DNA of 64,000 nucleotides from an uncultured Bacilli bacterium (GCA_964018915.1 CAXHRJ010000001.1:544636-608635), one strand, 5' to 3'; shown: positions 21,864 through 45,432, counted from the first letter of the stretch. Numbers and translations are program-made. The notes: generated from the letters alone by a model not told the origin.

Positions 21864-21912
21864 CTATTATCAATTATATCATAATAATAAAAATTTACAA
21901 GGAAAGTTCCCA

Positions 21913-25763: not shown

Positions 25764-25827
25764 AAGAACACCTCAATATAGTCTATGGGGAAATTACTCT
25801 TATGTGCAAAAAAGAGAGTCGAATTAC

Positions 25828-28887: not shown

Positions 28888-29445
28888 TTAAGAATTATAT
28901 TTTGCTACTAAAACTTTATTTTTCTCTAATAAACCTTCTTCTCTTGCAAAAGAAGGCTCTACTACATGCTCCGAATAACAAGTTCTCTCTTGTTCTTCTA
29001 GCTTTTTACACTTTTCTCCATATTCTAAGGCCCATTCTCTTACTTTTCTCATACTATCAATATTCTCTTCATTTTCTAACCAAGCAATAACATCCTCATC
29101 CGTTAAAACTTTACCCTTATAATGAAACTCCCCATTTGGATAATTTTGCACCATATGTCTAGAAATAGGCCACTGTCTTGCTTCTACACCAATGCAAACT
29201 TCTAAAGGAGGATCTACCATTTCCTTCCAATGTGGATAACAAAAAACAACTGGTATATCTGTTCCATATAATTTATATCCTGTTGCGGTAGACGTAGTTC
29301 CATCTAATAAAATCCCACTAGAAAGATGTAGATTTCTAACACCCATCCAACCTCTATTATAACTTTCTTTCCAACTGTTAGGTAATAAGATTTTTCTTTT
29401 TTTTACAAGAATTCCTTCTAAAATTGTATTTTTATCTTTCTGCAT
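28888..29445 (-). CDS. hypothetical protein co-transcribed with fmt (not recognisable as peptide deformylase)
   Basis: Occupies the position usually held by def but lacks GxGxAAxQ/EGCLS/HExxH motifs. Confidence 0.4.
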   Translation of the reverse strand: MQKDKNTILEGILVKKRKILLPNSWKESYNRGWMGVRNLHLSSGILLDGTTSTATGYKLYGTDIPVVFCYPHWKEMVDPPLEVCIGVEARQWPISRHMVQNYPNGEFHYKGKVLTDEDVIAWLENEENIDSMRKVREWALEYGEKCKKLEEQERTCYSEHVVEPSFAREEGLLEKNKVLVAKYNS

Positions 29446-29557: not shown

Positions 29558-30094
29558 ATGAATCTAAAAGATTTAAATACCCCTGAAAAAGTTATGGAAT
29601 TTATGGGAAACATTGACTACGGGTGGATTGGAACAGATAACAAAATTAGAACAAACACAATTAAAGGAATCCAAAAATTCTATCGAACACAGAGTCCTAA
29701 TGAACTATTAACTACTAGATATGGAATTTGTATTGATGATGTAGAACTTGAAAGGCTATTACTTTCCCCTTACTATCATACAAAATCATTCGCTATTATA
29801 TCCTCCATCATCTTCCATTCTTTCTTACTATTAGAAAAAAATGGAGTATACACTTACTTTGAATACTCTTCCTATAAAAATAGAGGAATTAATCACTTTC
29901 TAACAGAGGAAGAAGCTTTAGAACATGCCCTAAAAAGTTTCATGAAATCTCATAATATAAAAAACAGAAATAAGCTTTTTTTAGTAGAATATCCTACTAT
30001 TCCCCCTAATACTACCTTTGAAGAAATGAAAAATATCCTTACTAAAAGACCAAATCTATTAGATAAAAACAATAAAGATATGAAAACTTACTAA
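29558..30094 (+). CDS. hypothetical protein
   Basis: ORF only; convergent with the Rhs orphan array. Confidence 0.35.
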   Translation: MNLKDLNTPEKVMEFMGNIDYGWIGTDNKIRTNTIKGIQKFYRTQSPNELLTTRYGICIDDVELERLLLSPYYHTKSFAIISSIIFHSFLLLEKNGVYTYFEYSSYKNRGINHFLTEEEALEHALKSFMKSHNIKNRNKLFLVEYPTIPPNTTFEEMKNILTKRPNLLDKNNKDMKTY

Positions 30095-30152: not shown

Positions 30153-30593
30153 TTAACCTCTATAGGTATCCTCTTCTTCATATCCACCCATATAATAAAT
30201 GTCTACATCGTAAAATGCGCCTATTTGATGAAAAAAATCTATATCTTTTGGATTCAAATATACTGATGGACACTGACTTCCATATATTTCAATAACTAAA
30301 GAAAAAACAAAATCACAATTCCATTTTTGCTTTATTTGTTGAAGTTCTTTTGTTTTAGGCAATAACTTCCTAATTAACTTCCTTAATGGTTTACAAGAGT
30401 CTGGAGAGAATTCATATTTAGTTGATATCTCCCATCTGCCAACTTTTTTTGATATTGGAAAAGATACACTTTTATCATTTCTATTAAATGATTCATCTGG
30501 TGTTATTTCTAACAATTGAGTAATAATATCCGTATTAATATTTTTTCCTTCTATACAAAACTCTGCTTTTACTAAAGATTTCCATTCTTCCAT
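30153..30593 (-). CDS. putative immunity protein of the terminal orphan toxin cassette
   Basis: ATG 7 nt after the stop of the degenerate orphan C-terminal module; position equivalent to other immunity genes in the array. Confidence 0.45.
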   Translation of the reverse strand: MEEWKSLVKAEFCIEGKNINTDIITQLLEITPDESFNRNDKSVSFPISKKVGRWEISTKYEFSPDSCKPLRKLIRKLLPKTKELQQIKQKWNCDFVFSLVIEIYGSQCPSVYLNPKDIDFFHQIGAFYDVDIYYMGGYEEEDTYRG

Positions 30594-30602
30594 TCATGCA
30601 CC

Positions 30603-31149
30603 TCATTTTATCTTTATATATGTATTGATTCCCCCATGTTGTGCGCCTCTAGGAAAAATCCATATGTAGCCATCATCCTTATTTAAATATATATCACAAC
30701 GAGAACCATTTTTTTAAATCCATATTCTTTTTTAAAGGAGTGTATAAAACAGTTGCAGTTGTTCCAATAACAATAGCTATTCCAATAGCAATATCATCCG
30801 CTATTGCTATCATACCACTAGGATCACTAAACATAATAGGATTGTTACTACAATACACATATAGGTTATATTCTAAGATATCTCCATTTGCTCCTAATAT
30901 ACTATCAGCACTTATAAATCTTCCTAAAGTTGGATTATAGTATCTACTATTTAAATAATATAGATTAGTTTCTGTATCATAGTAGTATCCTCTATATCTA
31001 TATGGGTTTATATCTCCTATATTATCTTCTGTTAGATTATTTACTGTTACTACTCCCCATGTGTTATATGTATAGTTTGCTACAGCATTAAATTCAAAAT
31101 CTAATATCTCTATTATATCACCTTGTATGTTTTTTACAAAGTAATATAT
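30603..31149 (-). pseudogene. orphan Rhs core 3' fragment + degenerate C-terminal toxin module (frameshifted)
   Basis: Bases 30818-31149 are near-identical to the 3' end of the main rhs core (…YYFVKNIQGDIIEIL…RYYNPTLGRFISADS…MFSDPSG). After PSG the frame gives 41 aa then a stop. A +2 frame continues (DDGYIWIFPRGAQHGG...) to a TGA 7 nt before the next ATG. Confidence 0.5.
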
Positions 31150-31159
31150 GTTATTATAA

Positions 31160-31215
31160 AGAAAAAGAATTGATCTTTTTATTCAATTCTTTCTTCATTT
31201 TTTATGGAGTTTTAC
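31160..31215 (-). terminator. terminator downstream of immunity gene 31225-31719
   Basis: GAAGAAAGAATTGA...TCAATTCTTTTTCTT hairpin then T-rich run; orphan core repeat begins immediately after. Confidence 0.45.
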
Positions 31216-31224
31216 TTAATTTTA

Positions 31225-31719
31225 TTAAATATCATAATCTATAGATAAACTATCAAAAAGTTTGTCTATAGTAACATAATATAATTGCAAATCATCATAA
31301 GCCATATTATAACAAGTTTCGTCATACTCAACTTTATCTAAATCTGATAAATATTTTTTAGTTAATATATCTATATATTCTCTAATTCCCATATTAAAGT
31401 TTAAATTAACTGACATAAGTTTCATTATATCATTAATGCAACTTTTTATACTATCTAATGTATCGTCTGATAAAAAACTCAAAGTATCATTCAAAATACA
31501 TTCCAAGTAATCAATACGCTTTTGTGGTGAAACATGCAAAGTTGAAGTTCCAATAATATATCCTAATGTTATTTCTTTGAACTTTTTTTCTTGACTTACA
31601 AATTTATTTTTTAATTTTGATTTTCTTAAGCATTCAATGCTTTTAAAGAATACTAATTCTCCCACTTCAACAACATTAACTTTTGTATGTCTAAGAAACA
31701 TATAATTACCTCCTATCAT
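31225..31719 (-). CDS. putative immunity protein for orphan toxin CT2
   Basis: Start overlaps the orphan toxin stop (ATGA), typical toxin-immunity coupling. Confidence 0.5.
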   Translation of the reverse strand: MIGGNYMFLRHTKVNVVEVGELVFFKSIECLRKSKLKNKFVSQEKKFKEITLGYIIGTSTLHVSPQKRIDYLECILNDTLSFLSDDTLDSIKSCINDIMKLMSVNLNFNMGIREYIDILTKKYLSDLDKVEYDETCYNMAYDDLQLYYVTIDKLFDSLSIDYDI

Positions 31720-32611
31720 GGTTTATAATGATGATGATAGCCATCTTTAGGATCCCACTCAAATCGAAAGATACTACCATAGTTTCCACTTTTTTTATAG
31801 CCTGAGATGTTTATAAATGTTAACCCAGGTCTATTATATTTTAATTCAAAACTAGGATTTCTATAAAGAAATTCTACATTTTTTATTTTATACCCATTAC
31901 CATTATTGATTTTAGGAAATTTTCCTGATTTTACTGATGTATCAACCACTACACTACTTAATAATATAGGCCCTGCAATATCATTTCCTAAACTATAACC
32001 AATGTTGTACCAATTACCACTTTTTATTGCACCAGAAACATTATTATATATATTTCCAATTACTTTATGTGGAAGCCAATTTCCACTTGTAATATATGAA
32101 ATTGAAGAATCAAATGTTCCTACGGGGTCAGTCACTGCTTCATATGCAAATTTAAATGGAAATGTAACTGTATCAATAGTACAATCGCCTATTCCTACTA
32201 ATAAACCATGACTAAATTTTACAGCATCTTTTCCAAATTTCTTAGCTCCTTCTACTAAATCATCTAGAAAAGAATTTCCAGAAGAATCACTAAACATAAT
32301 AGGATTGTTACTACAATATGCATATTGGTTATATTCTAAGATATCTCCATTTGCTCCTAATATACTATCAGCACTTATAAATCTGCCTAAAGTTGGACTA
32401 TAGTATCTACTATTTAAATAATATAGATTAGTTTCTGTATCATAGTAGTATCCTCTATATCTATATGGGTTTATATCTCCTATATTATCTTCTGTTAGAT
32501 TATTTACTGTTACTACTCCCCATGTGTTATATGTATAGTTTGCTACAGCATTAAATTCACAATCTAATATTTCTATTATATCACCTTGTATGTTTTTTAC
32601 AAAGTAATATG
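31716..32611 (-). CDS. orphan Rhs core 3' fragment fused to an alternative C-terminal toxin domain (unknown type)
   Basis: Bases 32285-32611 are ~95% identical to the main rhs 3' core. They encode …DPIMFSDSSG, then a 185-aa C-terminal domain (GN/W-rich, ends GYHHHYKP) with no similarity to the GIY-YIG tip. The frame is open through the repeat. Confidence 0.6.
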
Positions 32612-32617
32612 CTTCTA

Positions 32618-32656
32618 CTAATAATAAAAAGAAACTGTTGCAATCCAGTTTCTTTC
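32618..32656 (-). terminator. rho-independent terminator after immunity paralog 32663-33679
   Basis: AAAGAAACTG-gattgcaa-CAGTTTCTTT perfect 10-bp stem followed by U-rich run on minus strand. Confidence 0.65.
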
Positions 32657-32662
32657 AAACTT

Positions 32663-33679
32663 CTATAATAAACCTCTTTTTTTTAAGAATTCCTCTATTC
32701 TTTTATCTTTCTCTTCTCTGTTAATTCCTCTTTTTTCCCAATAATCTAATTGATAAATTTCAGCCTGTTTTAAGTTATAATTTTTGTATGATTCAATTAC
32801 CGAATATTCTAAAGACTTCCACAAAACATTCTTTTCAAGACTTGTTGTCGTAAAACTTCCTTTATTAGAAACATTATATTCAATTTTTGGAAAAACTATT
32901 TTGTTATCAAAATTTCCTATATATTGTAATTCTTTTGGAATTACCCTTTTTGACGATGTAAGTATTTGAAATTCATAGAAAGGTGTGAGTTTATTTTCAT
33001 CTTTTGGCTGTCTCAGATCGTCTACAGTAACATCTACTATATACTTGTACATATATGTATATAGACCACTTTGAATATATTCTAATTCATTTATTTCTTC
33101 TACTGTTGTTGGTATCTTTCCTTTTTTGGTTACTTTTATTTTTACCACTGGCATTATACTTTCCAAATAGCAATTGGACATTCTTACCACAATTAAAATC
33201 AAATATTGACTATCTAGTCCTACTTTCTTCGCTTCTTCACTTTTTAATGGATATGCAAATACATCCCCTATTTGCCATTCACATTTATATGGTTTTCCAT
33301 AACTTTTTACTTTCTTTTCTGAAGATTGTGGAGTATTTAACTTTTCTTTTAATTCTAATAATACCCTTTTTCGTTGTTCTAATAACTTAGAATTTTCTTC
33401 CCATCTTTTTAAATCTATTTCGCTATCTATTACTTTAATTGCATTTTCCTTTACTTTATCTAAAAGCCTTCCATATTTCCATTGAATATCTGACAATGCA
33501 AGCCAAAAGATTGATTCTTCCTCCTCATCCTTATGACTTGTATATTCTTCTATTAACTTTTCTGTTATTTCTTCATTACTTATACCTTTTCTCAATGCTT
33601 CTATATATTCTTCTTTTACATCGTATGCTACATCATCTTGGTATAATTTTACTCCCCATGATCCCATATTATCCTCCAT
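32663..33679 (-). CDS. immunity protein paralog (shared N-terminal WGVKLYQDDVA domain + C-domain homologous to 37182-38165)
   Basis: MEDNMGSWGVKLYQDDVAYDVKEEY…, and C-part YGKPYKCEWQIGDVFAYPLKSEEAK…PVVKIKVTKKGKIPTTVEEINELEYIQS closely matches the cognate immunity protein of the main toxin. Confidence 0.6.
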   Translation of the reverse strand: MEDNMGSWGVKLYQDDVAYDVKEEYIEALRKGISNEEITEKLIEEYTSHKDEEEESIFWLALSDIQWKYGRLLDKVKENAIKVIDSEIDLKRWEENSKLLEQRKRVLLELKEKLNTPQSSEKKVKSYGKPYKCEWQIGDVFAYPLKSEEAKKVGLDSQYLILIVVRMSNCYLESIMPVVKIKVTKKGKIPTTVEEINELEYIQSGLYTYMYKYIVDVTVDDLRQPKDENKLTPFYEFQILTSSKRVIPKELQYIGNFDNKIVFPKIEYNVSNKGSFTTTSLEKNVLWKSLEYSVIESYKNYNLKQAEIYQLDYWEKRGINREEKDKRIEEFLKKRGLL

Positions 33680-33764
33680 ATATGTTTATTATATCATAAC
33701 TTTATTTATAAAAAGAAAAGAACTGAATTATTTTCAGTTCTAAATATAATCAAAATTAATTGAT

Positions 33765-34010
33765 TTATTCTCCATCGTTATACTCTATTTCCTCACAAAT
33801 AACATTAATTTCATTTCCAGACTTTAAAGTTACCAATACTTCTATTTTTCCACTCTCTTCTTTTAATTTTGCTTGATGAACAATATGATTTTCTTTACAA
33901 AAATGATTATAAAGCTCTTCAATTTTTGATTTAGCATCTAATACCTCTACAAAGTATATGTGCTGAACTGGGCCAAAAAAATCACAAGATTGAATATTTA
34001 AATAGATCAC
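33765..34010 (-). CDS. small hypothetical protein in immunity array
   Basis: ORF only. Confidence 0.3.
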   Translation of the reverse strand: MIYLNIQSCDFFGPVQHIYFVEVLDAKSKIEELYNHFCKENHIVHQAKLKEESGKIEVLVTLKSGNEINVICEEIEYNDGE

Positions 34011-34199
34011 ATGATTAAACCTAACTTTTATCTTTTTTTCTTTAACTCATTCTAAATTTGTTACAGATATTTCTATTGTTCGTCTTCTGTAATCATAATT
34101 AAAATCTTCTAATCCATCATTTAATAAATCTAATTTTTTAAGATTTGTTCGTTTTCTTTATTTTTCATTTTCTCACCTTTAATTCAAAAGTTTCAAACT

Positions 34200-35032
34200 C
34201 TATTTTTGAATTAAATCATCTTTTTTTCTTTCCATTTCTGAAATAAGATAATCTTCAAAATTATAAATATTTAACATTGCTACCCCAATTTCTAAACCTT
34301 GTGGATATTTTGTATTAACATCATATTCTAACATACTAATATCATTTGATAAAACAAGAAAACCTGCTTTTTTAAAATCCTGATTATTAAAGCATATTAC
34401 TGCAAATCTATCATCATTTTTTAAACTAGAATTTACAAATTTTAATTCATCAATATTAGGAATATTTCTTTCATCACCAATAAAATTATATAGACTTATC
34501 ACAGGACTTTCATTACAAAATTTATCTTTAGGAATATTATAATAATATTCCTCCTTAATTGCAATTACTCTAAATAATACAAATTTATGATACCATTTAT
34601 GATTCTTAAACTTTTCATCTTTAATTTGATATAGTAATAAGTCTCCTTTTTTAAAAGGGGATAAATAAGAAACTAATTTAGAAACCTTTTTAATAAATGG
34701 CTGTGGTTTCTGCAATTTCTTTTTTAAATCTATCAACACTTTTTTCTTGCATCTAATAGATTTAAATCATCAACCCATTTTTCCAAATCTTTTCCACTAT
34801 CTATATAAGTAATTGCATTTTCCTTTACTTTATCTAAAAGTCTTCCATATCTCCATTGAATATCTGCTAATGCAAGCCAAAAAATTGGTTCATCATCAGA
34901 TAATTCATACTCTTTAATCATAGATTCAGTAACTTCATCATTACTAAGACCTGCTCTTAATTTAATAATATACTCTTCTTTTACATCACATGCTACATCA
35001 TCTTGATATAATTTTACTCCCCATGCTCCCAT
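34200..35032 (-). pseudogene. frameshifted immunity-protein paralog (N-domain ORF 34733-35032 + C-domain ORF 34200-34739)
   Basis: N-part MGAWGVKLYQDDVACDVKEEY…DARKKC stops. The overlapping -1 frame continues LIDLKKKLQKPQPF…, aligning with KRKKVLEELKEKLNTPQP of the intact paralogs. A single indel near 34735 would restore a ~280-aa protein. Confidence 0.55.
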
Positions 35033-36018
35033 ATATTATCCTCCAATGTTTTTTCAACTATTCTTCTTATATAATCATCAGGATCATCTTTCAATGAAAT
35101 AAAAATGTCTAACATAGTATCATCAAAAAACTTTGATAATACGGATAAAGCACCTACCCTTAAATATGGAGTATCTAAATCTTGTAAATATAAATTTCTA
35201 TATTTGCTGCTTGATTCAATATTTCTTCCCTTCAAATATAGTCTTTCTTCTCCTTCGATTTCAAGATCTATACGAATTAAATCTACTCTACCTTTTTCAT
35301 TGACATCTTGCACTAATTGCTCTAAATTATATAACCAATTGCTATCTTTATTTTCTATAGCTATATTAATACTTTGTTTTAAAGAATCTTCCAAGATTAT
35401 TTTTGAAATTTTCTTAAGTCTTGATAAAATCTGAGAAGACCCATACCAATTTAAATCTTGTAACCACATCATTATTTTAGGCAAAAATTTTTCCAATTCC
35501 TTATCAGATTTACTACATACAATTTTTGAGCAATTTTCCCATACCCTCTGTTCGTATTGAGGAACATATGGTTGAATAAATATTTCAAAGTTTGCTAGTT
35601 TCTTTCCTATTTCTATTCCATCATTTTGAAGTTCAACGTCATTTTCATAATCTAACATCTTCAATATCAAAAATCTATTATCAGCAGCTTCAACTTTCTC
35701 TAATATTTCTTTCTTTTTTTCTGATTCTTCCAATAAATCTATTAACCATAAGGTCCATATGTATTTTTTATTAATTAAAGTTTCTTCTATTTTTATTTCT
35801 AATTTTTCATTTATTATTTTTTTAGAAAAACTTTTTAATCTATAATAGATTATAAGAGCTCCTGGAGTATCTATATTTTCAATCCAGTCAAACATTACTG
35901 GCAAAAAAGATATCAACTCTTCATCGTTTTTTGTAGATATAATTCTAGCATACTTATCCCAATCCTTTTTATTTTGTTTTAATAAAAAATGATTAAACAT
36001 CGTATTTATATCCATCAT
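35014..36018 (-). CDS. immunity-like protein with internal tandem duplication (two ~150-aa repeats)
   Basis: Repeated KDWDKYARIISTKNDEELISFLPVMFDWIENIDTPGALIIYYRLKSFSKKII / VWENCSKIVCSKSDKELEKFLPKIMMWLQDLNWYGSSQILSRLKKISKIIL segments; located inside orphan immunity array. Confidence 0.4.
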   Translation of the reverse strand: MMDINTMFNHFLLKQNKKDWDKYARIISTKNDEELISFLPVMFDWIENIDTPGALIIYYRLKSFSKKIINEKLEIKIEETLINKKYIWTLWLIDLLEESEKKKEILEKVEAADNRFLILKMLDYENDVELQNDGIEIGKKLANFEIFIQPYVPQYEQRVWENCSKIVCSKSDKELEKFLPKIMMWLQDLNWYGSSQILSRLKKISKIILEDSLKQSINIAIENKDSNWLYNLEQLVQDVNEKGRVDLIRIDLEIEGEERLYLKGRNIESSSKYRNLYLQDLDTPYLRVGALSVLSKFFDDTMLDIFISLKDDPDDYIRRIVEKTLEDNIWEHGE

Positions 36019-36019
36019 T

Positions 36020-36192
36020 TTAACACTTCCTTACTAAACCAGAGTTTGAAGAACAAGTGTTCCTTTGTGCCCTTTCAGTAATCTCATCCTTACTAAATCC
36101 TGCTCTTAATTTAATAACATATTCTTCTTTTACATCACTTGCTACATAATCTGGATATAATTTTACTCCCCATGCTCTCATATTATCCTCCA
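36020..36192 (-). pseudogene. truncated remnant of the shared immunity N-domain
   Basis: Encodes MEDNMRAWGVKLYPDYVASDVKEEYVIKLRAGFSKDEITE then diverges. It stops 1 nt before the ATG of 35014-36018. Confidence 0.45.
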
Positions 36193-36283
36193 TATGTGTT
36201 TATTATATCATGCATTTATTAATATAAAGAAAAGAACTGAATAAAATCAAGCTCTTTTGCAAAATAAAATATTAATACCTTTT

Positions 36284-37150
36284 TTATAACTTTGATAAAT
36301 CATCTATTGTTATTGGAATTTCTGTAGAAAAGAAACTATTAAATTCAATTCCAATAGATTTTAAATATTCATATTCTTCTCTATTTTCACATTCTATCCA
36401 ACAAACTTTTTCATGTGCCTCAGAGCATAACCAGCATTTATCATCTTTATAAAAACATATATCCATTATACCTTTTGGAAAATCCCAATCATATATAGAA
36501 TCTTTCATAGATACTAGTTCATCGTACATAGTATCATCCAAACAAAATATATATTCTGTTCCATAAAGAGGCAAAGTTCTACAATCACTAATGTGTTTTT
36601 GTTCTAACATTCTTTCTTCAAAAAAAGAATCTATTTTTTTTAAAAAGTGAGAATGATTTCTTTCAATAAACCTTTCAATATTATAATCATAATAAAGCCA
36701 TTCTAATGTATATTTAATTGAAAATAAAAGATTACTGTTAATATAGAAAAAATCAATTGGAAATGAACTATTTGGGCCAAATTCTAAAATTTCGGAAAGA
36801 CAATATTTTTTTATTTCAATATTATCACTATATTTTTTAGCAATATTCTCTATTTCTTCATAAGAAAAATTGATATTTAAATTTCTTTCAGGAAATATTA
36901 CACTTCTTATCTTCTCATGGAATTTTCTATTTTGACCATATCTCCTAAAAAATGATACAATATTGCATTTTTGAATAGCGTATCTTATTAAATTTTTATA
37001 AATTTCAAATGTCATATTAGAAACATCTACATCCACTATTTTACCTCCATTTATACCATATATGAGGATGATTTGGGATTCCATTAACATGAAGATGACG
37101 ATAATATCCTGGAATACCATTTCCGTGGGTTTTATCCTCATAAAAGTCAT
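36284..37150 (-). CDS. hypothetical Cys-containing protein in immunity array
   Basis: ORF only, 31 bp downstream of cognate immunity gene. Confidence 0.35.
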   Translation of the reverse strand: MTFMRIKPTEMVFQDIIVIFMLMESQIILIYGINGGKIVDVDVSNMTFEIYKNLIRYAIQKCNIVSFFRRYGQNRKFHEKIRSVIFPERNLNINFSYEEIENIAKKYSDNIEIKKYCLSEILEFGPNSSFPIDFFYINSNLLFSIKYTLEWLYYDYNIERFIERNHSHFLKKIDSFFEERMLEQKHISDCRTLPLYGTEYIFCLDDTMYDELVSMKDSIYDWDFPKGIMDICFYKDDKCWLCSEAHEKVCWIECENREEYEYLKSIGIEFNSFFSTEIPITIDDLSKL

Positions 37151-37181
37151 CTAATTTTATACTAGATCTTTAACCAAATAA

Positions 37182-38165
37182 TTAAATAATATTTTTAGAT
37201 TTTTTTATTTCTTCCATAATTTTCTCTCCACGTAATCTGCACTCCTCTAAATATTTCTTTCTTTCTTCCCAAAAATTTGGAGCATATATACTACCTTTCC
37301 TTAAATTATAAAACTTATAATTATTAATTACTTTAGTTTCAATTTCTTTCCAATCCAACACGTTCTCGGCAAAATCTTTCATATTAACCATATATTCTAT
37401 TTTAGGTTTTTTTATCTGATTATTAAAATTTCCTATAAATTGTAAACTTTTAGGAATGACTCTATTTGAAGTAGTAATTATACTAAATTCATATTCCGGG
37501 GTAAAACCATACTCATCCTTTGGTAATTTTTGAGCACTTTTCCTTACACTAAAATCAGCCAAATAAACATTACTTTGGATATATTCTAGCTCATTTATTT
37601 CTTCTACTGCTGTTGGAATTTTTCTATTTTTTGTTATTTTTATTTTTACTACTGGAATAATATGTTCTGGATACCATTTTGTTTCTCCTGTTTTTATAAG
37701 TATTAAGTATTGTCCTTCAAAACCAGCTTCTTTTGCTTCTTCACTTTTTAATGGATAGGCAAATACATCGCCTATTTTCCATTCACATTTATATGGTTTT
37801 CCATAACTTCTTACTTTCTTTTCTGAAGGTTGTGGAGTATTTAACTTTTCTTTTAATTCTTCCAATACTTTTTTTCTCTTCCCATATAGTTTAGGATTTT
37901 CATCCCATCTTTCTAAATCCACTTCGCTATCTATAAATTTAATGGCATTACTTTTCACCTCTTGTAATAATCTACCATAATTCCACTGCGTATCTGCAAG
38001 TGCAAACCAAAAGATTGGTTCATCATCTATATCTCCCGTATACTCATTTATTAGTTTTTCAGTTATTTCTTCATTACTTATACCTTTTTTTAATGCTTCT
38101 ACATATTCAGTTTTTACATCACATGCTACATCATCTTGGTATAACTTTACTCCCCATGATCCCAT
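37182..38165 (-). CDS. cognate immunity protein of the Rhs GIY-YIG toxin
   Basis: ATG 3 nt after the rhs stop with RBS GGAGGA inside the last rhs codons; N-terminal MGSWGVKLYQDDVACDV domain shared with paralogs. Confidence 0.65.
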   Translation of the reverse strand: MGSWGVKLYQDDVACDVKTEYVEALKKGISNEEITEKLINEYTGDIDDEPIFWFALADTQWNYGRLLQEVKSNAIKFIDSEVDLERWDENPKLYGKRKKVLEELKEKLNTPQPSEKKVRSYGKPYKCEWKIGDVFAYPLKSEEAKEAGFEGQYLILIKTGETKWYPEHIIPVVKIKITKNRKIPTAVEEINELEYIQSNVYLADFSVRKSAQKLPKDEYGFTPEYEFSIITTSNRVIPKSLQFIGNFNNQIKKPKIEYMVNMKDFAENVLDWKEIETKVINNYKFYNLRKGSIYAPNFWEERKKYLEECRLRGEKIMEEIKKSKNII

Positions 38166-38168
38166 ATA

Positions 38169-41100
38169 TTATCCTCCTACATACGTTTCATGTTCTAAAT
38201 CCCACCAATTGTTCGCTGCATCCAGATAAATATCTCTCTTTGGATTTTTTAATGAAATCCCATGAATTTGATTATTTGCCTTATTAAATTCGTTTAAAGT
38301 TCTATATTCTATTATTTTAGTTTCCTCTAATCCCCTCGCAGCATTTAAAGTCATTGGTCCATAAATATTTAATGCTCTCATCTCTAAATGTTTTCGGTAA
38401 GGATTCCTTCTATGTCTTCTTTTCGTTTCTGCTAAATCTTTAGTTCTACCAACGTATTGAACTTTATCGTTACTATCCGTTAATAGATAAACATAATAGG
38501 CTTTTGGACCTTCATCTTTTCTCTGTTTACGATCTCTAGATACTGACGATTTAATTGCAATGTCAGCTTCCCTTACTCCACTGGCAATAGTCGATATCCC
38601 TCTTCCTAGTGCCTTCACACCTTCTACAACAAATGGAATAGTCAAAGGAATTAATGGTACTAATTCTAAAGGAATAGCAAACTCTCCACTAGGATCACTA
38701 AACATAATAGGATTATTACTACAATACGCATATAGGTTATATTCTAAGATATCTCCATTTGCTCCTAATATACTATCAGCACTTATAAATCTTCCTAAAG
38801 TTGGATTATAGTATCTACTATTTAAATAATATAGATTAGTTTCTGTATCATAGTAGTATCCTCTATATCTATATGGGTTTATATCTCCTATATTATCTTC
38901 TGTTAGATTATTTACTGTTACTACTCCCCATGTGTTATATGTATAGTTTGCTACAGCATTAAATTCACAATCTAATATCTCTATTATATCACCTTGTATG
39001 TTTTTTACAAAGTAATATGTCTGATTATTTACTATTAATCCAGATACTCCACTTTCATCATATAGATATTCTATTATTTCTCCATTTCTATCTTCATAGA
39101 TAATATTATTTCCTTCTAAATAGTAATTCGTTGTTTTGCCATTTATTACTTTCTTTGTTCTTATTCCTTCTACGTTGTATTCATACTCATATTGATTATT
39201 ATCTTGACTAATAGTTTTTAATTCGTTTCCATTTGTCCATGTATAATTATATCCATTATAACTTGTCATATTTCCTATAGAATCATAAGTTATTGGTTTT
39301 TCATTAAATTGAGTTAATTGATCTTTCCAATTATTATCATATTGATATTCACCTAATATATTGGTAGAAGATGGTGTTTGTGCATCTACGATAAAATCAG
39401 TAGGAGGTACTTTAAGCATTGGAGAAAAAGCTAACGCATCCATTGTATAATTATTTTGATACTTTTGTATTAAATTACCACCTGAATCATAAGAATACCC
39501 TATATAACTATAAAACTTTCCAGAATACTCTCTTTTTAATTGGTTTAAAGAATCGTAAGAATATCTTTTTTGGTAGTTACCATTTTTTTTAATTGTCAAA
39601 ATATTTCCATTCGCATCATAAGTATACTCTAATTTCGTAGTACCATTAGTAATCCTTTTTAATAGTGTAGTTGTTTTATATTCATCTACATCATAGTATT
39701 CATAAGTTGTTGTATAGGTTTTATCATCTCTTATGATTTCTTTTTTTATTAATCTATCTAATTTATCATAAGTATAATGAACACTATAATCAGGATAAGT
39801 AATAGTTACTAATTTATCATCTGCATCATAGGTATAAGATACTTCTTTTTCTTTAGAATTATAGTTATATTTTACTTTATCTAAGTTGTTATATTGATCA
39901 TACTGATATTGTTTCTTAAAATTATTTTCTTTAATGCTAGTTATTCTACCACTTAAATCATAAGTATAATAGATATCATTATTTAAATAGTTTAAATGAG
40001 ATAAATATCCTCTATTGTTATAAGCATAAGTTGCAGTTCCTGTTGTATTTGTTTTTTTACTAATTCTACCAAAAGTATCATATTCATAATTTATTGTATC
40101 ATTATTTCCATAGATACTTTTTAGTAAATATCCATTATTTGCTTCATATTGATGAGTTATTAGTGGACTACCTGCTACTTTAATAGAAGTAGTATTTCCA
40201 TACTCATCACGTACAAAATCATAATCAAAATTATTATGGGTTATTTTAGTTAAGTAATCTTTATCATAAGTATAAGAATTGGTAGTATTACCACTTTTTA
40301 TTTGGGTTATATTATCATTAATATCATAAGTATATTCTGTTGCAATTCTTTTTGCATCTACTACTTCTGAAACAGTTCCTCTATTCTCATTATAAGTAGT
40401 AGTTACTTCATACCCTCTTTGATCAATTACTTTGTTTTGATAATTTCCATTTTCTGTATATTCTGCTTTTGTTTCGATATATTTATTTTGTCCATCCACT
40501 GGATAAATCATAAATTTTTGGGCATCTGTTAGATTACATTGATACTGTTGGATATTTCTACCTTTTTCATATATAGCTCCATGAATATCTATACAACTTT
40601 TATAATCTGTTATTTTAGTTTGAAAATAAAATGTTCCATCATTATTATTAGATAATTTATATTTTTGACTATTACTATTACTCTTATTAGATAACAAGAT
40701 ACTGATACTATTAGCAGTATTAGAATCTTTTACTGTTAAAGCTTTTTCATTTTCATCTACTATGAAATAATCTTCTCCAGTTTTTATAAATTTCCATGTC
40801 TTTTTTCCATCAATTAATTCTACATTTGAGTCTTTATCTCCCACTACTAAATTGGTTGCTACTGGCTTTATATAATAATAAGTATTTTCTTCTATGTCAT
40901 CAGTAGATCTAATCATAGATGGTTCTGTTATCTTATTACTAGTAACATTACCATAATCATCATACTCATAACTAGATGTTAATCCATTTTGATTAAATGC
41001 TTGCAATAATCTATTGGTATGATTATAGTCATACTCATAATAAAACATTCTGCCTTTTGGATTCAATGCCCCTATTAGTTCATTTTTCTTACTATAATAA

Positions 41101-44100
41101 TACCTACTATTTTGGTTTGCTAAATCGGATGTACTGATAACATTACCATTTTCATCATAGGTATAACTACTTCCCTTTTCATCTTTATATACACCTATAT
41201 TAGAAAAATAAGAATATGAGGTATTATAGTTATACGCTAAAATCACTTTAAGACTTTCATAATCCTGTTTAGCAACAAAGTTATCACTCAAATATTGCCA
41301 TTCACTTGTATCACTTAACACACTAATTACTTCTGAATATAAAATATTACCACTTCCATCTAAGTACTGAAAAACTAATTTATCAGCCTTAGAATTACCT
41401 ATCGGAGAACCATTATTCTTTGCCCAAAAACTAACATTAAACGAATCTCCTTTTTTACCACTTATTGGAATTATTTTATACAGATGTTTCCATTTTTCCA
41501 TTTCTCCATACATTTGAAAAGCATTAATTCCACGAATAGTAACTACTTTATCATTACTTCCAAGATTAGCTTGTCTTTCCCAATCAGAAGCTCCATTAGA
41601 AAAATTGCCATTATCTACTAAATTATAAGGATTGGTAACATTTCCTTCTTCCAATTGAATGTTATCTACTAAAATACTACCCACATCAAAGATTGCAATT
41701 CCTACTTTTGTATTACTAACAGAATCAGTTGGAATTGTAAATGTTTTACTATATCTATCATAGTTAGCATTTATTTTGATAGGTCCTAAAAATTCATGAT
41801 GATAAGTCCCACTAGAATCCTTATATTCATAAAAGTAATAAGCATCTATATTTCCTTTTATATAAGCAGATAAAGTATAAGTTCCTCCTGCATTCATAGG
41901 AACTGATTGCCATAAAATAGGATTACTGTTTTCTACTATTGATTCTATTTTAAAACTGTTACTACCAATATATCCATCTTTTATAACACTTACATTTCCA
42001 TTATTAACTCCCCAATTAGAAACATTCCAATAATTTAAATTCTTCTCGGCAGAACTATTTAAAATCTCATTATTAGTAGATTTCACCATTTGCGTTTCTA
42101 ATAATAGTTTATTTTTAGTAGAACCACTAGTACCATATTGATATGACACGCCGTATGCATTCTTCAAAGAATTATTCTTATCTAAACTATTAATGCTTAA
42201 TGTCTGTCCTAAATTATTAAAAGTATAATTTTCTAAATTTCCTTTATTATCTTTAAAACTAGTAGTATTACTTCCATATTTCATAGTAATGGAATTTCCT
42301 ACAGTTCCTTTATTTCCATATTCAGTTACTGATTTTACTCGATAAGGAGACTTAGAATGATAAGTGTAAGAAACAGAACTACCATCTACATTTATTACTT
42401 TTGATAATAATTTATTAGTATATTGATATTCTGTTTTTAAACTATCTGGATAGGTAATACTAGTTAGATTATTAGAGTTATATCCATACTTATAAACTCT
42501 ATTATCTACATCCGTTATACTTGTTAATAAATTATTAGTATAAGTAAGTGTTAAGGTATCTCCTACTGCATCCTCCACACTTGTAATAAGATTATAATTA
42601 GATCCATAATTAATAGTAATCTTATTATCATTAGTATCTTTTATTTCTTTTAAATACCACTTACCATTATTTTTTATAAAAGTAGAAACATTGCCACCTT
42701 TATCTTTCATAATATAATTAGTACCACTAGTTGTAATTGTTAAATCTAAGCCATCTTCATCTTTCCATGTACCAGATTCTTGATAGAAATAATGTCTAGT
42801 AGCATCTTCATCAATATATAATAAGTAATTGATACCTGATATCGTTTTTGCTTCTATTGTTTGATTAAGATTTAATCGAAAACCATTTCCATATCCTATG
42901 TTAGTCTCTTTATCATTGGTATTATAAACATGATTAATACTAACTGGTAATCTACTACCAGGAGTTGATGCATCCCTATGAATAAGTGTTAAATTTCCAT
43001 TGTAATCATTTGTCATAGTTGTAGTTCTACCAATACTTTGGGTATGTGTAGTTAAATAATTTTCTAAGCCTGTTTGATTTCTATATTGAATAATAATATA
43101 CGGTCTTTTATAAGTATAAGCACTTGATGTATCACTAGAAATAAAGGATACATCATTTCTACCACTTACTTTCTTTTCTACATGCTCTTTTAATAATAAC
43201 CCATAATTATTTCCACTTACATACCAATCTTTTACTAAACTAGTAATATCAGCAGTATTCTCTTTATTTTGATTATTAGAATCATAAGAATATTTTATAT
43301 AATCTACAATTTGAGAATTGTAAGAATCTTTCATATTATTCCAATAAGCATTAGATTCATTCCAATCTTTTGTAACTGCATGAATATCAATTTGAATATT
43401 TCCACTAGGTGGTGTCCAATCATTCGTATTTTGATAATTAAAGATATGTAGTTCAGCTGCGATTACTTGATCACCACTAGTAAGGGTTGGTAGTTTAAAT
43501 TTAATTAAACTTCTAAAGGGATTCTTATTGGTATTAATATCACTATAGGAAGTACTTCCTACCCTCAAAATATGGGCATTTCCTTTTCCTGTATTCGATG
43601 CATCATTAGGATAAATATACGTATCTACTATATCATCCCTATTAGGACTTGTAGCTATAATAGGATCAATGGTAATTGGAAATATTCTCTCTTTAGAATT
43701 TAACCAATTAGAGTCTGCCTGTAATGTAATCTCATATCCCTCTTCTACCTTTTTTGGAGTTAAGGTAATATCTGAACTAAATTCTAAATTAGAATCATAC
43801 ATTACTGGAGCACTTACATAAAATACTTCTTTCCCCTCTTTATCTAAAAATACTAATTCATTTTTTGTTAACTGTTTTACCACTAAATCTTTTGTAGTTA
43901 AAGAATAAACAAAAGTATCTTTTATAGATTCTTTATTCCCTATAATAATATTTTCTTCTATTCTATCAGAAACTAATTCATACTCTAAATCAATATCCTT
44001 TAAAACTTCAGAATACTCTATTTTTGATTCTAAAGAAGGAATAGAATAAAGTCCTGAACTAGTTAAAAAATCTTTTTCTATAGTTCCATTTGCTTTTTCT

Positions 44101-44525
44101 ATATTTTTCATTTTCCATGAAATTTCATGTTCTTTATAATTTATAGTTAATAAACTTTCTTCTTTTGAAAATTCAGATACTATATTGCTTCTTTTCGTTT
44201 TAAATCCTGAAGAAGTAGATACTAAGGTATTATCAATATCTACTAGTTTTCCATCTTCCTCATAATGAACTGCTTCTGGATAAATAACAGCTTTAATAGA
44301 GCCATCCTCTAATAAATAATGCTTTTCATTAATTGTTCTTTTTTCTAGAATTTCTCCTACTACTGATACTTCTTTTTCAGTATCATTCAATTCTGTTTTT
44401 AATTCCAGTTTACTTTTCTGTCCTTCTTTTTCTAAAAAAAAAGCAAAAGCTACTACTGGACAAGCATTTATTAAAATGGAAATAATCCATATATAAATGA
44501 GTCCATGCTTAAAAATACTTCTCAT
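38169..44525 (-). CDS. Rhs/YD-repeat wall-associated polymorphic toxin (WapA-like) with C-terminal GIY-YIG nuclease domain
   Basis: Signal peptide from MRSIFKHGLIYIW (ATG at 44525, RBS AGAGGAG). Lectin/CBM-like and ricin-B-like N-terminal regions (QQYQCN..QKF). Dozens of YD repeats (YTYDANGN, YEYD, YQYD). Rhs core end RYYNPTLGRFISADS…DPIMFSDPSGEF. C-terminal YYVYLL…VQYVGRTKDLAETKRRH matches the GIY-10aa-YIG…R nuclease signature (cf. UvrC VYRM…VIYVGKAKDLKKR). Confidence 0.9.
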   Translation of the reverse strand: MRSIFKHGLIYIWIISILINACPVVAFAFFLEKEGQKSKLELKTELNDTEKEVSVVGEILEKRTINEKHYLLEDGSIKAVIYPEAVHYEEDGKLVDIDNTLVSTSSGFKTKRSNIVSEFSKEESLLTINYKEHEISWKMKNIEKANGTIEKDFLTSSGLYSIPSLESKIEYSEVLKDIDLEYELVSDRIEENIIIGNKESIKDTFVYSLTTKDLVVKQLTKNELVFLDKEGKEVFYVSAPVMYDSNLEFSSDITLTPKKVEEGYEITLQADSNWLNSKERIFPITIDPIIATSPNRDDIVDTYIYPNDASNTGKGNAHILRVGSTSYSDINTNKNPFRSLIKFKLPTLTSGDQVIAAELHIFNYQNTNDWTPPSGNIQIDIHAVTKDWNESNAYWNNMKDSYNSQIVDYIKYSYDSNNQNKENTADITSLVKDWYVSGNNYGLLLKEHVEKKVSGRNDVSFISSDTSSAYTYKRPYIIIQYRNQTGLENYLTTHTQSIGRTTTMTNDYNGNLTLIHRDASTPGSRLPVSINHVYNTNDKETNIGYGNGFRLNLNQTIEAKTISGINYLLYIDEDATRHYFYQESGTWKDEDGLDLTITTSGTNYIMKDKGGNVSTFIKNNGKWYLKEIKDTNDNKITINYGSNYNLITSVEDAVGDTLTLTYTNNLLTSITDVDNRVYKYGYNSNNLTSITYPDSLKTEYQYTNKLLSKVINVDGSSVSYTYHSKSPYRVKSVTEYGNKGTVGNSITMKYGSNTTSFKDNKGNLENYTFNNLGQTLSINSLDKNNSLKNAYGVSYQYGTSGSTKNKLLLETQMVKSTNNEILNSSAEKNLNYWNVSNWGVNNGNVSVIKDGYIGSNSFKIESIVENSNPILWQSVPMNAGGTYTLSAYIKGNIDAYYFYEYKDSSGTYHHEFLGPIKINANYDRYSKTFTIPTDSVSNTKVGIAIFDVGSILVDNIQLEEGNVTNPYNLVDNGNFSNGASDWERQANLGSNDKVVTIRGINAFQMYGEMEKWKHLYKIIPISGKKGDSFNVSFWAKNNGSPIGNSKADKLVFQYLDGSGNILYSEVISVLSDTSEWQYLSDNFVAKQDYESLKVILAYNYNTSYSYFSNIGVYKDEKGSSYTYDENGNVISTSDLANQNSRYYYSKKNELIGALNPKGRMFYYEYDYNHTNRLLQAFNQNGLTSSYEYDDYGNVTSNKITEPSMIRSTDDIEENTYYYIKPVATNLVVGDKDSNVELIDGKKTWKFIKTGEDYFIVDENEKALTVKDSNTANSISILLSNKSNSNSQKYKLSNNNDGTFYFQTKITDYKSCIDIHGAIYEKGRNIQQYQCNLTDAQKFMIYPVDGQNKYIETKAEYTENGNYQNKVIDQRGYEVTTTYNENRGTVSEVVDAKRIATEYTYDINDNITQIKSGNTTNSYTYDKDYLTKITHNNFDYDFVRDEYGNTTSIKVAGSPLITHQYEANNGYLLKSIYGNNDTINYEYDTFGRISKKTNTTGTATYAYNNRGYLSHLNYLNNDIYYTYDLSGRITSIKENNFKKQYQYDQYNNLDKVKYNYNSKEKEVSYTYDADDKLVTITYPDYSVHYTYDKLDRLIKKEIIRDDKTYTTTYEYYDVDEYKTTTLLKRITNGTTKLEYTYDANGNILTIKKNGNYQKRYSYDSLNQLKREYSGKFYSYIGYSYDSGGNLIQKYQNNYTMDALAFSPMLKVPPTDFIVDAQTPSSTNILGEYQYDNNWKDQLTQFNEKPITYDSIGNMTSYNGYNYTWTNGNELKTISQDNNQYEYEYNVEGIRTKKVINGKTTNYYLEGNNIIYEDRNGEIIEYLYDESGVSGLIVNNQTYYFVKNIQGDIIEILDCEFNAVANYTYNTWGVVTVNNLTEDNIGDINPYRYRGYYYDTETNLYYLNSRYYNPTLGRFISADSILGANGDILEYNLYAYCSNNPIMFSDPSGEFAIPLELVPLIPLTIPFVVEGVKALGRGISTIASGVREADIAIKSSVSRDRKQRKDEGPKAYYVYLLTDSNDKVQYVGRTKDLAETKRRHRRNPYRKHLEMRALNIYGPMTLNAARGLEETKIIEYRTLNEFNKANNQIHGISLKNPKRDIYLDAANNWWDLEHETYVGG

Positions 44526-44550
44526 AACATACTCCTCTACTTTCCCTTTC

Positions 44551-44578
44551 ATTATAATATATAGGGTATATAAGTCAA
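44551..44578 (-). promoter_or_regulatory. sigma-A-type promoter of the rhs gene
   Basis: Minus strand TTGACT (plus 44573-44578) - 16 nt - TATAAT (plus 44551-44556), ~25 nt upstream of the rhs ATG. Confidence 0.55.
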
Positions 44579-44584
44579 TGAGAT

Positions 44585-44660
44585 ATGTTCGAAATGTCCA
44601 AAATCGTGTTCGAAATGGTAGAAAGACGATTTCAGACACAGTTTTAACCATTTCAAACAC
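44585..44660 (-). promoter_or_regulatory. operator-like repeat: two direct copies of TGTTCGAAATG(G) 21 bp apart plus an inverted partial copy, abutting the rhs -35
   Basis: Plus strand tgttcgaaatg at 44585-44595 and tgttcgaaatgg at 44606-44617. Inverted variant catttcaaacac at 44649-44660. TTCGAA core is palindromic. Confidence 0.35.
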
Positions 44661-44689
44661 AAAAAAAGAAATGAATAACCATTTCTTTA
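44655..44689 (-). terminator. rho-independent terminator of nrdG
   Basis: Minus strand AAAGAAATG-gttatt-CATTTCTTT hairpin overlapping the nrdG stop, followed by U7. Confidence 0.5.
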
Positions 44690-45249
44690 TACGTATAAAC
44701 CTTCTGCATGACATCTTCCATAAGTAGTTAGTTCTTCTACTTCATCAAAATCAGCAAGAACTACTGTATTTTGTTCTAAACTTTTCTTTACATCTATAAT
44801 TCTTTGATTACTAGAACCTCTAAATTTTAAGCTATAACTATGTCTAGACATAATAAATTTACCATCTACTAAGATATCAATTTGCTTTAAAAAATCCATA
44901 ATAGATTTCTTTTTTTTACTCATAATCATCAATTGTTCAAAAGTAAACCCTGTATAACACCAAACATCCATATTATTTTCATGAACACTTTTTGCGATAA
45001 TTGCACAAGCTTCTGGTTGATAGAAAGGATCCCCTCCGCTAAATGTTACTCCAGTTTGAGCCTCTAAATAACCAATCTCTTCTACAATTTCTTCTACTTC
45101 TTCTTCGAATCCACCATTAAAATCATGAGTCCCTGGATTATGGCATCCAGGACAATTATGCCCACATCCTTGTGTCCATAAAACTGTCCTAATACCTGTT
45201 CCATCTACTACACTATCTAATTGTAAATCACTCGCTAAACGTATTTTCA
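44687..45249 (-). CDS. nrdG: anaerobic ribonucleoside-triphosphate reductase activating protein (radical SAM)
   Basis: CGHNCPGCHN radical-SAM Cys cluster. Probable start MKIRLAS at 45249, whose ATG overlaps the TAA of the upstream 60-aa ORF (TAATG). Confidence 0.9.
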
Positions 45250-45432
45250 TTATGCTGCTTTTTCTTCTGTTTCTTTTAATGAACATTTAATATCTTTAAT
45301 ACCAGTGTGTTTTACTCTATCTTTTTCTTCTGCACGTTTACCGTTATTAAATCTCTTAACATCTCCTGAAAGGTATCCTGTTACCCTTCTAATTCTTTCG
45401 AATCCTACACCTTCACCAACTAATTTTTCCAT
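45250..45432 (-). CDS. stand-alone glycyl-radical tail of class III RNR (NrdD C-terminal segment encoded separately)
   Basis: RIRRVTGYLSG…NNGKRAEEKDRVKH resembles the NrdD C-terminal RVxGYLG…NxGK…RVKH glycyl-radical segment. Own RBS GAAGGAG 8 nt before ATG. Separated from nrdD by 33 nt with three in-frame stops. Confidence 0.6.
   Translation of the reverse strand: MEKLVGEGVGFERIRRVTGYLSGDVKRFNNGKRAEEKDRVKHTGIKDIKCSLKETEEKAA

Follow-up and report, generated by a model that had tools for sequence, protein, structure and literature searches.

Near-identical Rhs core ends with orphan tip and immunity modules in an uncultured mouse-gut Bacilli bacterium

Orphan Rhs tips are textbook knowledge in Proteobacteria; to our knowledge, they are barely documented in Gram-positive gut bacteria. 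Here we describe one rhs locus in a 64,000-nucleotide stretch of DNA from an uncultured Bacilli bacterium (GCA_964018915.1, CAXHRJ010000001.1:544636-608635), which was analyzed as a whole and is called the window below; positions are counted from its first nucleotide. The locus contains one full-length rhs gene and, downstream of it, two orphan copies of the 3′ end of the Rhs core. With a probability of roughly 80%, we read it as an Rhs polymorphic-toxin locus of the Sec type (WapA-like), in which displaced tips are stored downstream.

The Salmonella Typhimurium rhs-main/rhs-CT-orphan locus (Koskiniemi et al. 2014, PMC3967940; Starsta et al. 2020, PMC7043789) is built in a similar way. In both loci, a start-less orphan with a near-identical core lies downstream of a full rhs gene; the shared core is 522 bp in length and 95% identical in Salmonella, and 333 bp in length and 97–99% identical in the window. 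Like the Salmonella orphan, the orphans of the window also place a tip and an immunity gene behind the DPxG boundary. Recombination between the Salmonella copies fuses the orphan tip to the main gene, a step that we infer from sequence for the window. The Salmonella main and orphan genes both carry promoters within the conserved core, 5′ of the motif (PMC7043789), whereas the corresponding promoters of the window are predicted only. As fusion by deletion removes the main immunity gene, a duplication-first route has been proposed for Salmonella (PMC3967940). Different from Salmonella, the host of the window locus is Gram-positive and shows no type VI secretion system (T6SS), PAAR or VgrG; in their place, the Rhs protein has a signal-peptide-like sequence at its N-terminus. 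The window also has two orphans, the tip of one being dead, and a long immunity array that lacks toxins.

Three copies of the Rhs core end

A repeat search of the 64-kb window identified one family of three direct copies, which are 97–99% identical and located at 30815, 32278 and 38686 (copies 1, 2 and 3, respectively; Table 1). The limits of the repeat were set by MAFFT and by ungapped comparison anchored on the common ATTATGTTTAGTGAT. Shared identity begins with ...ATATTACTTTG at 31148, 32611 and 39019, and it closes at GAT CCT AGT GG at 30815, ~32283 and 38686. Compared to copy 3, which is the copy of the main gene, copy 1 differs at 3 of the 333 positions (99.1% identity) and copy 2 at 9 (97.3%). 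The blastn E-values among the copies are between 1e-160 and 1e-175, and the next best match in the 64 kb is one 19-mer; chance similarity of the three copies is therefore excluded. Neither blastn nor tblastn revealed a fourth or degenerate core copy in the window; a tblastn query made of the final 250 core residues led to the same three places. The three near-identical copies of ~330 bp proposed in the initial annotation are thus real, and their coordinates had been given correctly to within 3–8 nt. Their assignment to the plus strand, however, is true for the coordinate system only, because all genes of the locus are read from right to left; the coding strand is the minus strand.

Each copy covers the whole TIGR03696 domain (RHS repeat-associated core domain, NCBIfam; positions 1–75/76), with scores of 76.9–82.7 bits in the main gene and the two orphans at a cutoff of 32.5, which agrees with the earlier identification of the segments as Rhs core 3′ ends. 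Also as described before, only the last copy lies in a full rhs gene (38169–44525). The copies had been described as almost identical in their nucleotides and as encoding one sequence that ends in (P/S)SG; the DNA is indeed 97–99% identical, whereas the peptides are not strictly identical. Relative to the main copy, copy 1 has the changes C to F and A to V, two of its three nucleotide differences being non-synonymous, and copy 2 has N to S, L to Q and P to S. By translation, both orphan copies are in frame with the sequence that follows.

All three copies end at the same D(P/S)SG codon, in line with the initial annotation. The boundary motif, PxxxxDPxG(L), takes the form NPIMFSDPSG in the main copy as well as in copy 1, and copy 2 has NPIMFSDSSG; the position behind the boundary glycine is occupied by E, M or N, not L. 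The reported P-to-S change in copy 2 was recovered at the codon level, GAT TCT TCT GGA replacing the GAT CCT AGT GGA of the main copy. This change falls within the final 8 nt of the homologous stretch, and it may be an original feature of the family of CT2, the tip of orphan 2. At the boundary position, one CT2 relative, P0124, reads ...NPIVRADDNG. The tip may be released autoproteolytically by the aspartyl protease of the core, a process of which the sequence shows the conserved motif only.

Recombination at the repeat

The window sequence matches GCA_965646225.1 at 100% identity. We compared it with L003, one uncultured Bacilli bacterium (MGBC165900) whose Rhs protein is 64% identical to that of the window; with L020 (GCA_948808835.1), which belongs to the same species as L003 and has flanks of 99.6% identity; and with L014 to L019, one lineage that is ~91% identical to the window. 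Alternative arrangements, for which the initial annotation had suggested a comparison of related genomes, are present. The tips, immunity genes and orphan fragments that lie between the core and thiI are entirely different in L003 and L020, and in L016/L017 the core continues after the same DPSG codon into another tip, CT-B, which comes with intact immB. The CT2-imm2 and core-CT1-DUF4279 cassettes of the window (CT1 being the tip of orphan 1) occur in the same order in L020, with 78.6–80.5% nucleotide identity.

The core fragments follow a different pattern from their cassettes. Copy 1 of the window is 98.5% identical to the main copy of the window, compared to 85.7% for the L020 fragment in front of CT1; the latter is closer to its own species' main core (95.8% identity). 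The L020 core fragment also holds one short window-like patch, GATTGTGA, which suggests a mosaic. Measured against the resident main gene, core fragments are 96–99% identical within a lineage, compared to ~86% between species. The imm33x-terminator-core fragment junction is common to the window, L003 and L016/L017, and each fragment resembles its own main gene. This pattern is either concerted evolution or repeated capture of cassettes via core homology. In both cases, the repeat recombines, because the fragments track the resident main gene, the cassette sets turn over and CT-B is joined at the same DPSG codon.

Fragments that decay without being translated should not stay 97–99% identical to the main gene while their cargo is only ~79–80% identical between species, and they should not group by genome instead of by cassette. 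For these reasons, and because CT2 is still open over its 187 residues without any stop, it is unlikely that the core fragments are passive leftovers of tip displacement that no longer recombine, in which case the array would be an 'immunity island' if anything. Signs of decay that would fit such leftovers are present, nonetheless: CT1 is destroyed, immB is split and another copy of it is truncated, the orphan tips have no translation start, non-synonymous changes occur in the orphan copies (two of the three differences in copy 1; three in copy 2), and the orphans of L003 are truncated as well.

The 5′ boundary of the core fragments is the same within a few nucleotides in copies 1 and 2 of the window and in L020. 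At this same place, 32 nt into the repeat, the L014 contig breaks off; judged by the typical behavior of assemblers at repeats, this suggests that the boundary is conserved in its lineage too. Logan contigs that are 100% identical to the window begin or end ~30 nt inside the repeats and are uninformative on the junctions, and a metagenome scan with one 30-mer from the 3′ end of the repeat gave 0 matches. As the repeats exceed typical k-mers and every short-read contig breaks in them, one may ask whether the assembler lined up strain-variable tips of a mixed sample behind one rhs gene. We consider such an artefact scarcely credible: the copies carry their own single-nucleotide differences, the terminator-repeat junctions are unique, and independent contigs cross them, the short-read contig L002 covering the imm2-terminator-copy 1 start and L016/L017 the imm33x-terminator-core start. 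The same cassette order is found in L020, which is another species, and two NCBI contigs (586 and 678 kb) agree on the arrangement.

The two orphan copies had been described as starting abruptly after rho-independent terminators. One hairpin with T-run does stand 5′ of each orphan. The hairpin in front of orphan 2 is conserved in L003 and L016/L017; the one in front of orphan 1 is below the G+C criterion of the hairpin scan and was detected by folding. The abrupt edge of copy 2 is partly the result of decay, however, because the homology between orphan and main gene extends ~20 nt farther upstream in one close relative. Stop codons are located just upstream of both orphan core fragments. Each copy also contains the promoter-like sequence TTGTAA-N13-TGATATAAT with a predicted extended -10 element, which is kept in the L003 and L020 copies. 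The window has four matches to this sequence, compared to 0.31 expected. The fourth, at 21873-21900 on the minus strand, is directly 5′ of a pyruvate-kinase open reading frame (ORF; 20439-21863), and it is the sole match outside the rhs locus.

Neither the three copies nor the tips contain an ATG, GTG or TTG that is in frame and accompanied by a Shine-Dalgarno sequence, so in their present form the orphan tips are silent as toxins at the level of translation. The immunity genes immA and imm2, on the other hand, are preceded by Shine-Dalgarno sequences of the AGGAGG type, and ribosome binding sites of the orphan immunity genes are strong. The lack of such starts also makes it quite improbable that the cassettes are toxin-antitoxin-like modules, in which the repeat promoter and one non-canonical start would yield a cytoplasmic tip along with its immunity protein, for a selfish or regulatory function and not as a spare part of the exported toxin, an idea put forward for Salmonella. 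What invites this idea is the strong promoter-like site in all three copies, right behind the terminators and conserved in relatives, and the precedent of internal promoters upstream of PxxxxDPxGL in main and orphan rhs (PMC7043789). But the orphan 1 cassette is kept although CT1 is dead, and the promoter-like motif overlaps conserved codons and is possibly incidental.

Taken together, the observations are best accommodated by the delivery-shell-plus-store reading given at the outset. The main gene encodes the YD-repeat shell, and its last ~111 residues (the core, ending with PIMFSDPSG) mark the start of the tip; each of the two further cassettes is made up of the 333-nt core-end copy, tip, immunity gene and terminator. 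As the comparison with relatives shows, homologous recombination or gene conversion holds the core-end copies near-identical to the resident main gene while the cargo diverges. If the main copy and copy 2 underwent RecA-type recombination, the delivery shell would acquire CT2, whether by direct 6.4-kb deletion, after duplication, or by re-insertion of one excised circle. In transfers between strains, the homology of the core would allow an incoming cassette to take the place of a tip or to displace it, precisely at the DPSG codon. Each copy opens, just past the upstream terminator, with the promoter-like site, which would drive the immunity gene of the cassette, and the orphan immunity proteins, if expressed, would protect against neighbors deploying those toxins. 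Calculated from the spacings, a crossover would delete 6,408 bp (main copy and copy 2), 7,871 bp (main copy and copy 1) or 1,463 bp (copy 2 and copy 1).

The initial annotation had proposed that recombination between copies swaps the tip together with its immunity gene. Comparison with relatives shows that the repeat indeed recombines. Since the copies are direct repeats on one chromosome, however, an intramolecular crossover deletes, releasing a circle, and an unequal sister exchange duplicates; neither is an exchange. Orphan 1 moreover cannot donate any working toxin, owing to the ~235-nt net deletion and 1-nt indel in its Ntox33 tip. We also considered a stronger proposal, in which the 333-nt core end is a self-contained cassette head with a fixed 5′ boundary after the terminator and its own extended -10 promoter, serving immunity expression as well as excision and re-insertion by homologous recombination. 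Such a head would be an integrase-free analogue of the integron, kept uniform by gene conversion across the species of an uncultured gut Bacilli lineage, and the array would in addition store a toxin family not described before (CT2); we find this proposal doubtful.

Several points weigh against the reading as a store of usable tips. Deletion between the main copy and copy 2 would also take out immA, and the loss of immA should be counter-selected among siblings. No recombinant of main core and CT2 was observed; the public short-read contigs stop inside the repeat. The high identity within the genome could come from recent acquisition from conspecifics, not from ongoing conversion. The decay of orphan 1 and the non-synonymous changes in the orphan copies imply that part of the array is eroding and is not a maintained arsenal. 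The promoter-like motif overlaps the conserved codons for FVKNIQGDII and is constrained by them, and the promoter scan found 58 sites in this DNA of 29% G+C, compared to 75 in shuffles. Toxicity, immunity, export and promoter activity are all predictions here.

Genes of the locus

Table 1. Position of the repeat copies, genes and predicted signals in the window.
Feature	Position	Strand	Basis
Repeat copy 1, orphan core fragment	30815..31148	-	Repeat search, MAFFT, ungapped comparison; TIGR03696 E = 1.9e-23
Repeat copy 2, orphan core fragment ending ...FSDSSG	32277/32283..32611	-	Repeat search, MAFFT, ungapped comparison; TIGR03696 E = 9.7e-22
Repeat copy 3 in main rhs, residues ~1836-1947 of 2118 aa	38686..39019	-	Repeat search, MAFFT, ungapped comparison, blastn, TIGR03696
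Main rhs gene, 2118 aa from M64	38169..44525	-	ORF; Pfam RHS_repeat, RicinB; NCBIfam TIGR03696, DNRLRE, TIGR01643
Main tip CT-A, 171 aa, GIY-YIG nuclease-like	38169..38684	-	PF01541, 23.8 bits (cutoff 22.6), E = 5.7e-5
immA, putative cognate immunity gene, 327 aa, 'WGVKLYQDD' family	37182..38165	-	AGGAGG Shine-Dalgarno; paralogue relations
Array of orphan immunity-type genes without toxin	32663..37150	-	Repeat families D2-D4, D8; blastp; DUF5071 by Pfam
ORF288, 288 aa	36284-37150	-	Related to immunity-like genes of L020
immB N-terminal fragment, 57 aa	36020-36193	-	blastp relations
DUF5071 gene	35014-36018	-	Pfam
immB split in two, 99 + 179 aa	34733-35032 + 34200-34739	-	blastp; intact in L016
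ORF81, 81 aa	33765-34010	-	ORF
imm334, 334 aa	32663-33667	-	blastp relations
Terminator-like hairpin + T-run, imm334/orphan 2	32627..32656	-	Hairpin scan; -12.8 kcal/mol, z = -3.0
Orphan tip CT2, 187 aa, in frame with copy 2, intact	31716..32279	-	Translation; start-codon scan
imm2, putative immunity gene for CT2, 158 aa	31225..31701	-	AGGAGG Shine-Dalgarno; 53% identical to homologue beside CT2 remnant in L020
AT-rich terminator-like hairpin + T-run, imm2/orphan 1	31156..31198	-	-12.2 kcal/mol, z = -4.0
CT1 remnant, 39 in-frame codons (transmembrane-like segment), then stop	30594..30821	-	Translation; comparison with L020
DUF4279 immunity-type gene of orphan 1, 146 aa, intact	30153..30593	-	PF14106 E = 8.4e-19
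Promoter-like TTGTAA-N13-TGATATAAT (extended -10) in all copies, predicted	38983..39010, 32575-32602, 31112-31139	-	Motif scan

The main Rhs protein contains one N-terminal signal-peptide-like segment, DNRLRE, one ricin-B lectin insert, YD (RHS) repeats (PF05593, E = 9.4e-19; TIGR01643, E = 1.2e-13), the Rhs-associated core and the GIY-YIG tip; the Pfam and NCBIfam scans also indicated one spike-fibre-like segment. Among the matches of these scans there is no cell-wall-binding family, and no PAAR, VgrG-binding or LXG/WXG domain. The true start of the gene is most likely M64, at 44525, upstream of which stand one GAGGAG Shine-Dalgarno sequence and one TTGACT-16-TATAAT promoter-like site; M64 also matches the start of the L003 orthologue and the 2118-aa gene call in L001. 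Counted from its first ATG, the ORF (38169..44714, minus strand) is 2181 aa in length, and its 63 extra codons (44526-44714) overlap nrdG (44687-45286). This extension is probably spurious, because the Shine-Dalgarno sequence and the promoter-like site stand before M64. Judged by eye, MRSIFKHGLIYIWIISILINACPVVAFAFF at the N-terminus resembles a Sec signal peptide; L003 has this segment in conserved form.

A sequence search of the PDB with the main tip gave nothing meaningful. Immediately behind it, immA begins 3 nt past the rhs stop, and its putative immunity role is predicted from this position only. In one collection of 15 billion proteins the Rhs protein has no relatives at 90% identity, its 90% cluster having one member. 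Upstream of the locus are nrdG and nrdD, and downstream are fmt, two Mur ligases and mraY; no secretion-system genes are found among the neighbors nrdD, nrdG, fpg, fmt, the Mur ligases and mraY. The two Mur-ligase genes (434 and 454 aa; 24459-27192, minus strand) are adjacent and share 73–77% DNA identity over several stretches (D5-D7), and they are apparently tandem paralogues. The G+C content of the locus is 24–28%, compared to 28–32% in the flanks; as the locus is only slightly more AT-rich, we dropped the G+C profile as a clue to its origin.

The initial annotation had let both orphan copies continue into different C-terminal modules. This is true for orphan 2, in which one uninterrupted ORF runs from a stop codon through the core fragment into the 187-aa CT2. 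CT2 has no Pfam or NCBIfam match. A word-indexed homologue search returned CT2 itself alone, and the protein had no relatives among metagenome contigs; an exhaustive profile-free search of 1.84 billion representative proteins gave six relatives, all distant and weak. One of them, P0124, joins an Rhs core end to a CT2-like domain, and it is located inside an orphan array beside one Ntox44 cassette. AlphaFold2 with the alignment of seven CT2 sequences reached a predicted local distance difference test (pLDDT) score of 45, which is unusable. CT2 belongs to a rare and unannotated tip family, with a predicted role as toxin.

Orphan 1, in contrast, stops after 39 codons and is a deletion remnant; the C-terminal end of the Ntox33 domain persists in it out of frame. 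In L020, the intact counterpart of CT1 follows one core fragment and is 149 aa in length (PF15533, Ntox33; 42.3 bits). Compared to L020, ~256 nt are missing from CT1 and 21 nt stand in their place, a net deletion of ~235 nt, and there is one additional 1-nt indel in an A-run. A mere poly-A slip, which we had considered for CT1, is ruled out by this internal deletion. The frameshift-corrected CT1 (69 aa) gave no candidates in a word-indexed search. The intact DUF4279 protein of the window is 75% identical to the product of the gene beside the intact Ntox33 in L020. Since the toxin is destroyed, orphan 1 is now an immunity cassette only. Tips of the CT1 and CT2 types both occur behind Rhs core sequence elsewhere (L020 and P0124, respectively), and among the relatives found neither type is on any demonstrably full-length rhs gene.

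The first tip of L020 (1-1038) shares the N-terminal MIAIADDVAIG...STPQGK with the Ntox33 tip and has one frameshift at an A-run before a different toxin domain. This frameshift is probably real, because one independent ENA contig (P0002) has the same reading, and it may be homopolymer phase variation or a pseudogene. In L003, the core fragment of orphan 1 (18505-18640) is 165 nt in length and passes mid-domain into another toxin's tail (...IHPPHSDGPHQYWHLQKNKW...), behind which lie two paralogous genes of ~125 aa; orphan 2 is cut off, and an ORF6N-domain gene comes next. The corresponding place in L020 is taken by one Bro-N gene, a hint of phage-like insertions at the distal end of the array. 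In the window, the sole plus-strand gene nearby (29558-30094, 178 aa) sits between the last orphan cassette and one 185-aa ORF (28888-29445); its match to the transglutaminase-like DUF553 is sub-threshold (20.0 bits, cutoff 20.5).

The 5.5 kb of 32663-38165, between the main tip and orphan 2, contain immunity-type genes only. immA, imm334 and the split immB share an N-terminal MG(S/A)WGVKLYQDDVA... region, and the 57-aa fragment is fused to the upstream region of the DUF5071 gene; such hybrid and truncated paralogues would be as expected from recombination between tandem copies. The 'WGVKLYQDD' family has no Pfam or NCBIfam match, and exact-protein look-ups of immA and imm334 led to two NCBI assemblies only. 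In L016/L017, immB is intact (277 aa) and directly behind CT-B, a GIY-YIG tip different from that of the window. There is no trace of CT-B in the window. With its own immB split and the intact pair in L016/L017, the lineage of the window therefore still has an immunity gene, now decaying, against a toxin that its relatives carry. The C-terminal motif of ORF288, ...ICFYKDDK.W...EYEYLKSIGIEF, is common to three ORFs of L020 (272, 111 and 268 aa), which sit behind a different toxin (...HFHPDRYSHRHIWFRN); ORF288 probably represents an orphan immunity gene whose toxin this genome lacks.

Comparison with known Rhs and immunity systems

Strings of units made of one core fragment and one tip, downstream of one intact gene, are also described by the enterobacterial C-terminal displacement model (Jackson et al.; PMC3150448), and in both cases related strains have unrelated tips at the same boundary and share orphan modules. 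The model stresses the variable length of the fragments, whereas both orphans of the window and their L020 counterpart start at essentially the same core position. Such uniform boundaries fit the model of circle excision and re-insertion (PMC2935791). Phylum and export route differ from those of enterobacterial rhs.

Like WapA of Bacillus subtilis and rhs/wapA of Streptococcus suis (PMC12704120), the main gene encodes one Gram-positive YD-repeat protein of >2000 aa with a polymorphic C-terminal toxin and a downstream immunity gene; WapA has an N-terminal signal peptide, and the protein of the window one signal-peptide-like sequence. In S. suis, one truncated 'Rhs orphan' without signal peptide and with an incomplete core has been reported (PMC12704120). 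Different from WapA, no cell-wall-binding domain was detected in the window protein, which has DNRLRE, the ricin-B lectin insert and other tips.

[quoted passage not shown] The array of the window resembles them in its shared N-terminal region, hybrids, 57-aa fragment and split copy, and one of its members is cognate to a toxin that only relatives have. Compared to the T7SS and T6SS arrays, it is tied to one Rhs protein and its family is without Pfam or NCBIfam match.

The locus leaves the current understanding of Rhs systems unchanged. It adds one clean and compact orphan Rhs example from an uncultured mouse-gut Bacilli lineage, together with cross-species evidence for homogenization of the core end and for turnover of cassette sets between strains; the rare unannotated CT2 domain with its candidate immunity partner and the unannotated immunity family deserve to be flagged. 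It is a new example of a well-described system, that of orphan Rhs-CT/immunity modules and C-terminal displacement.

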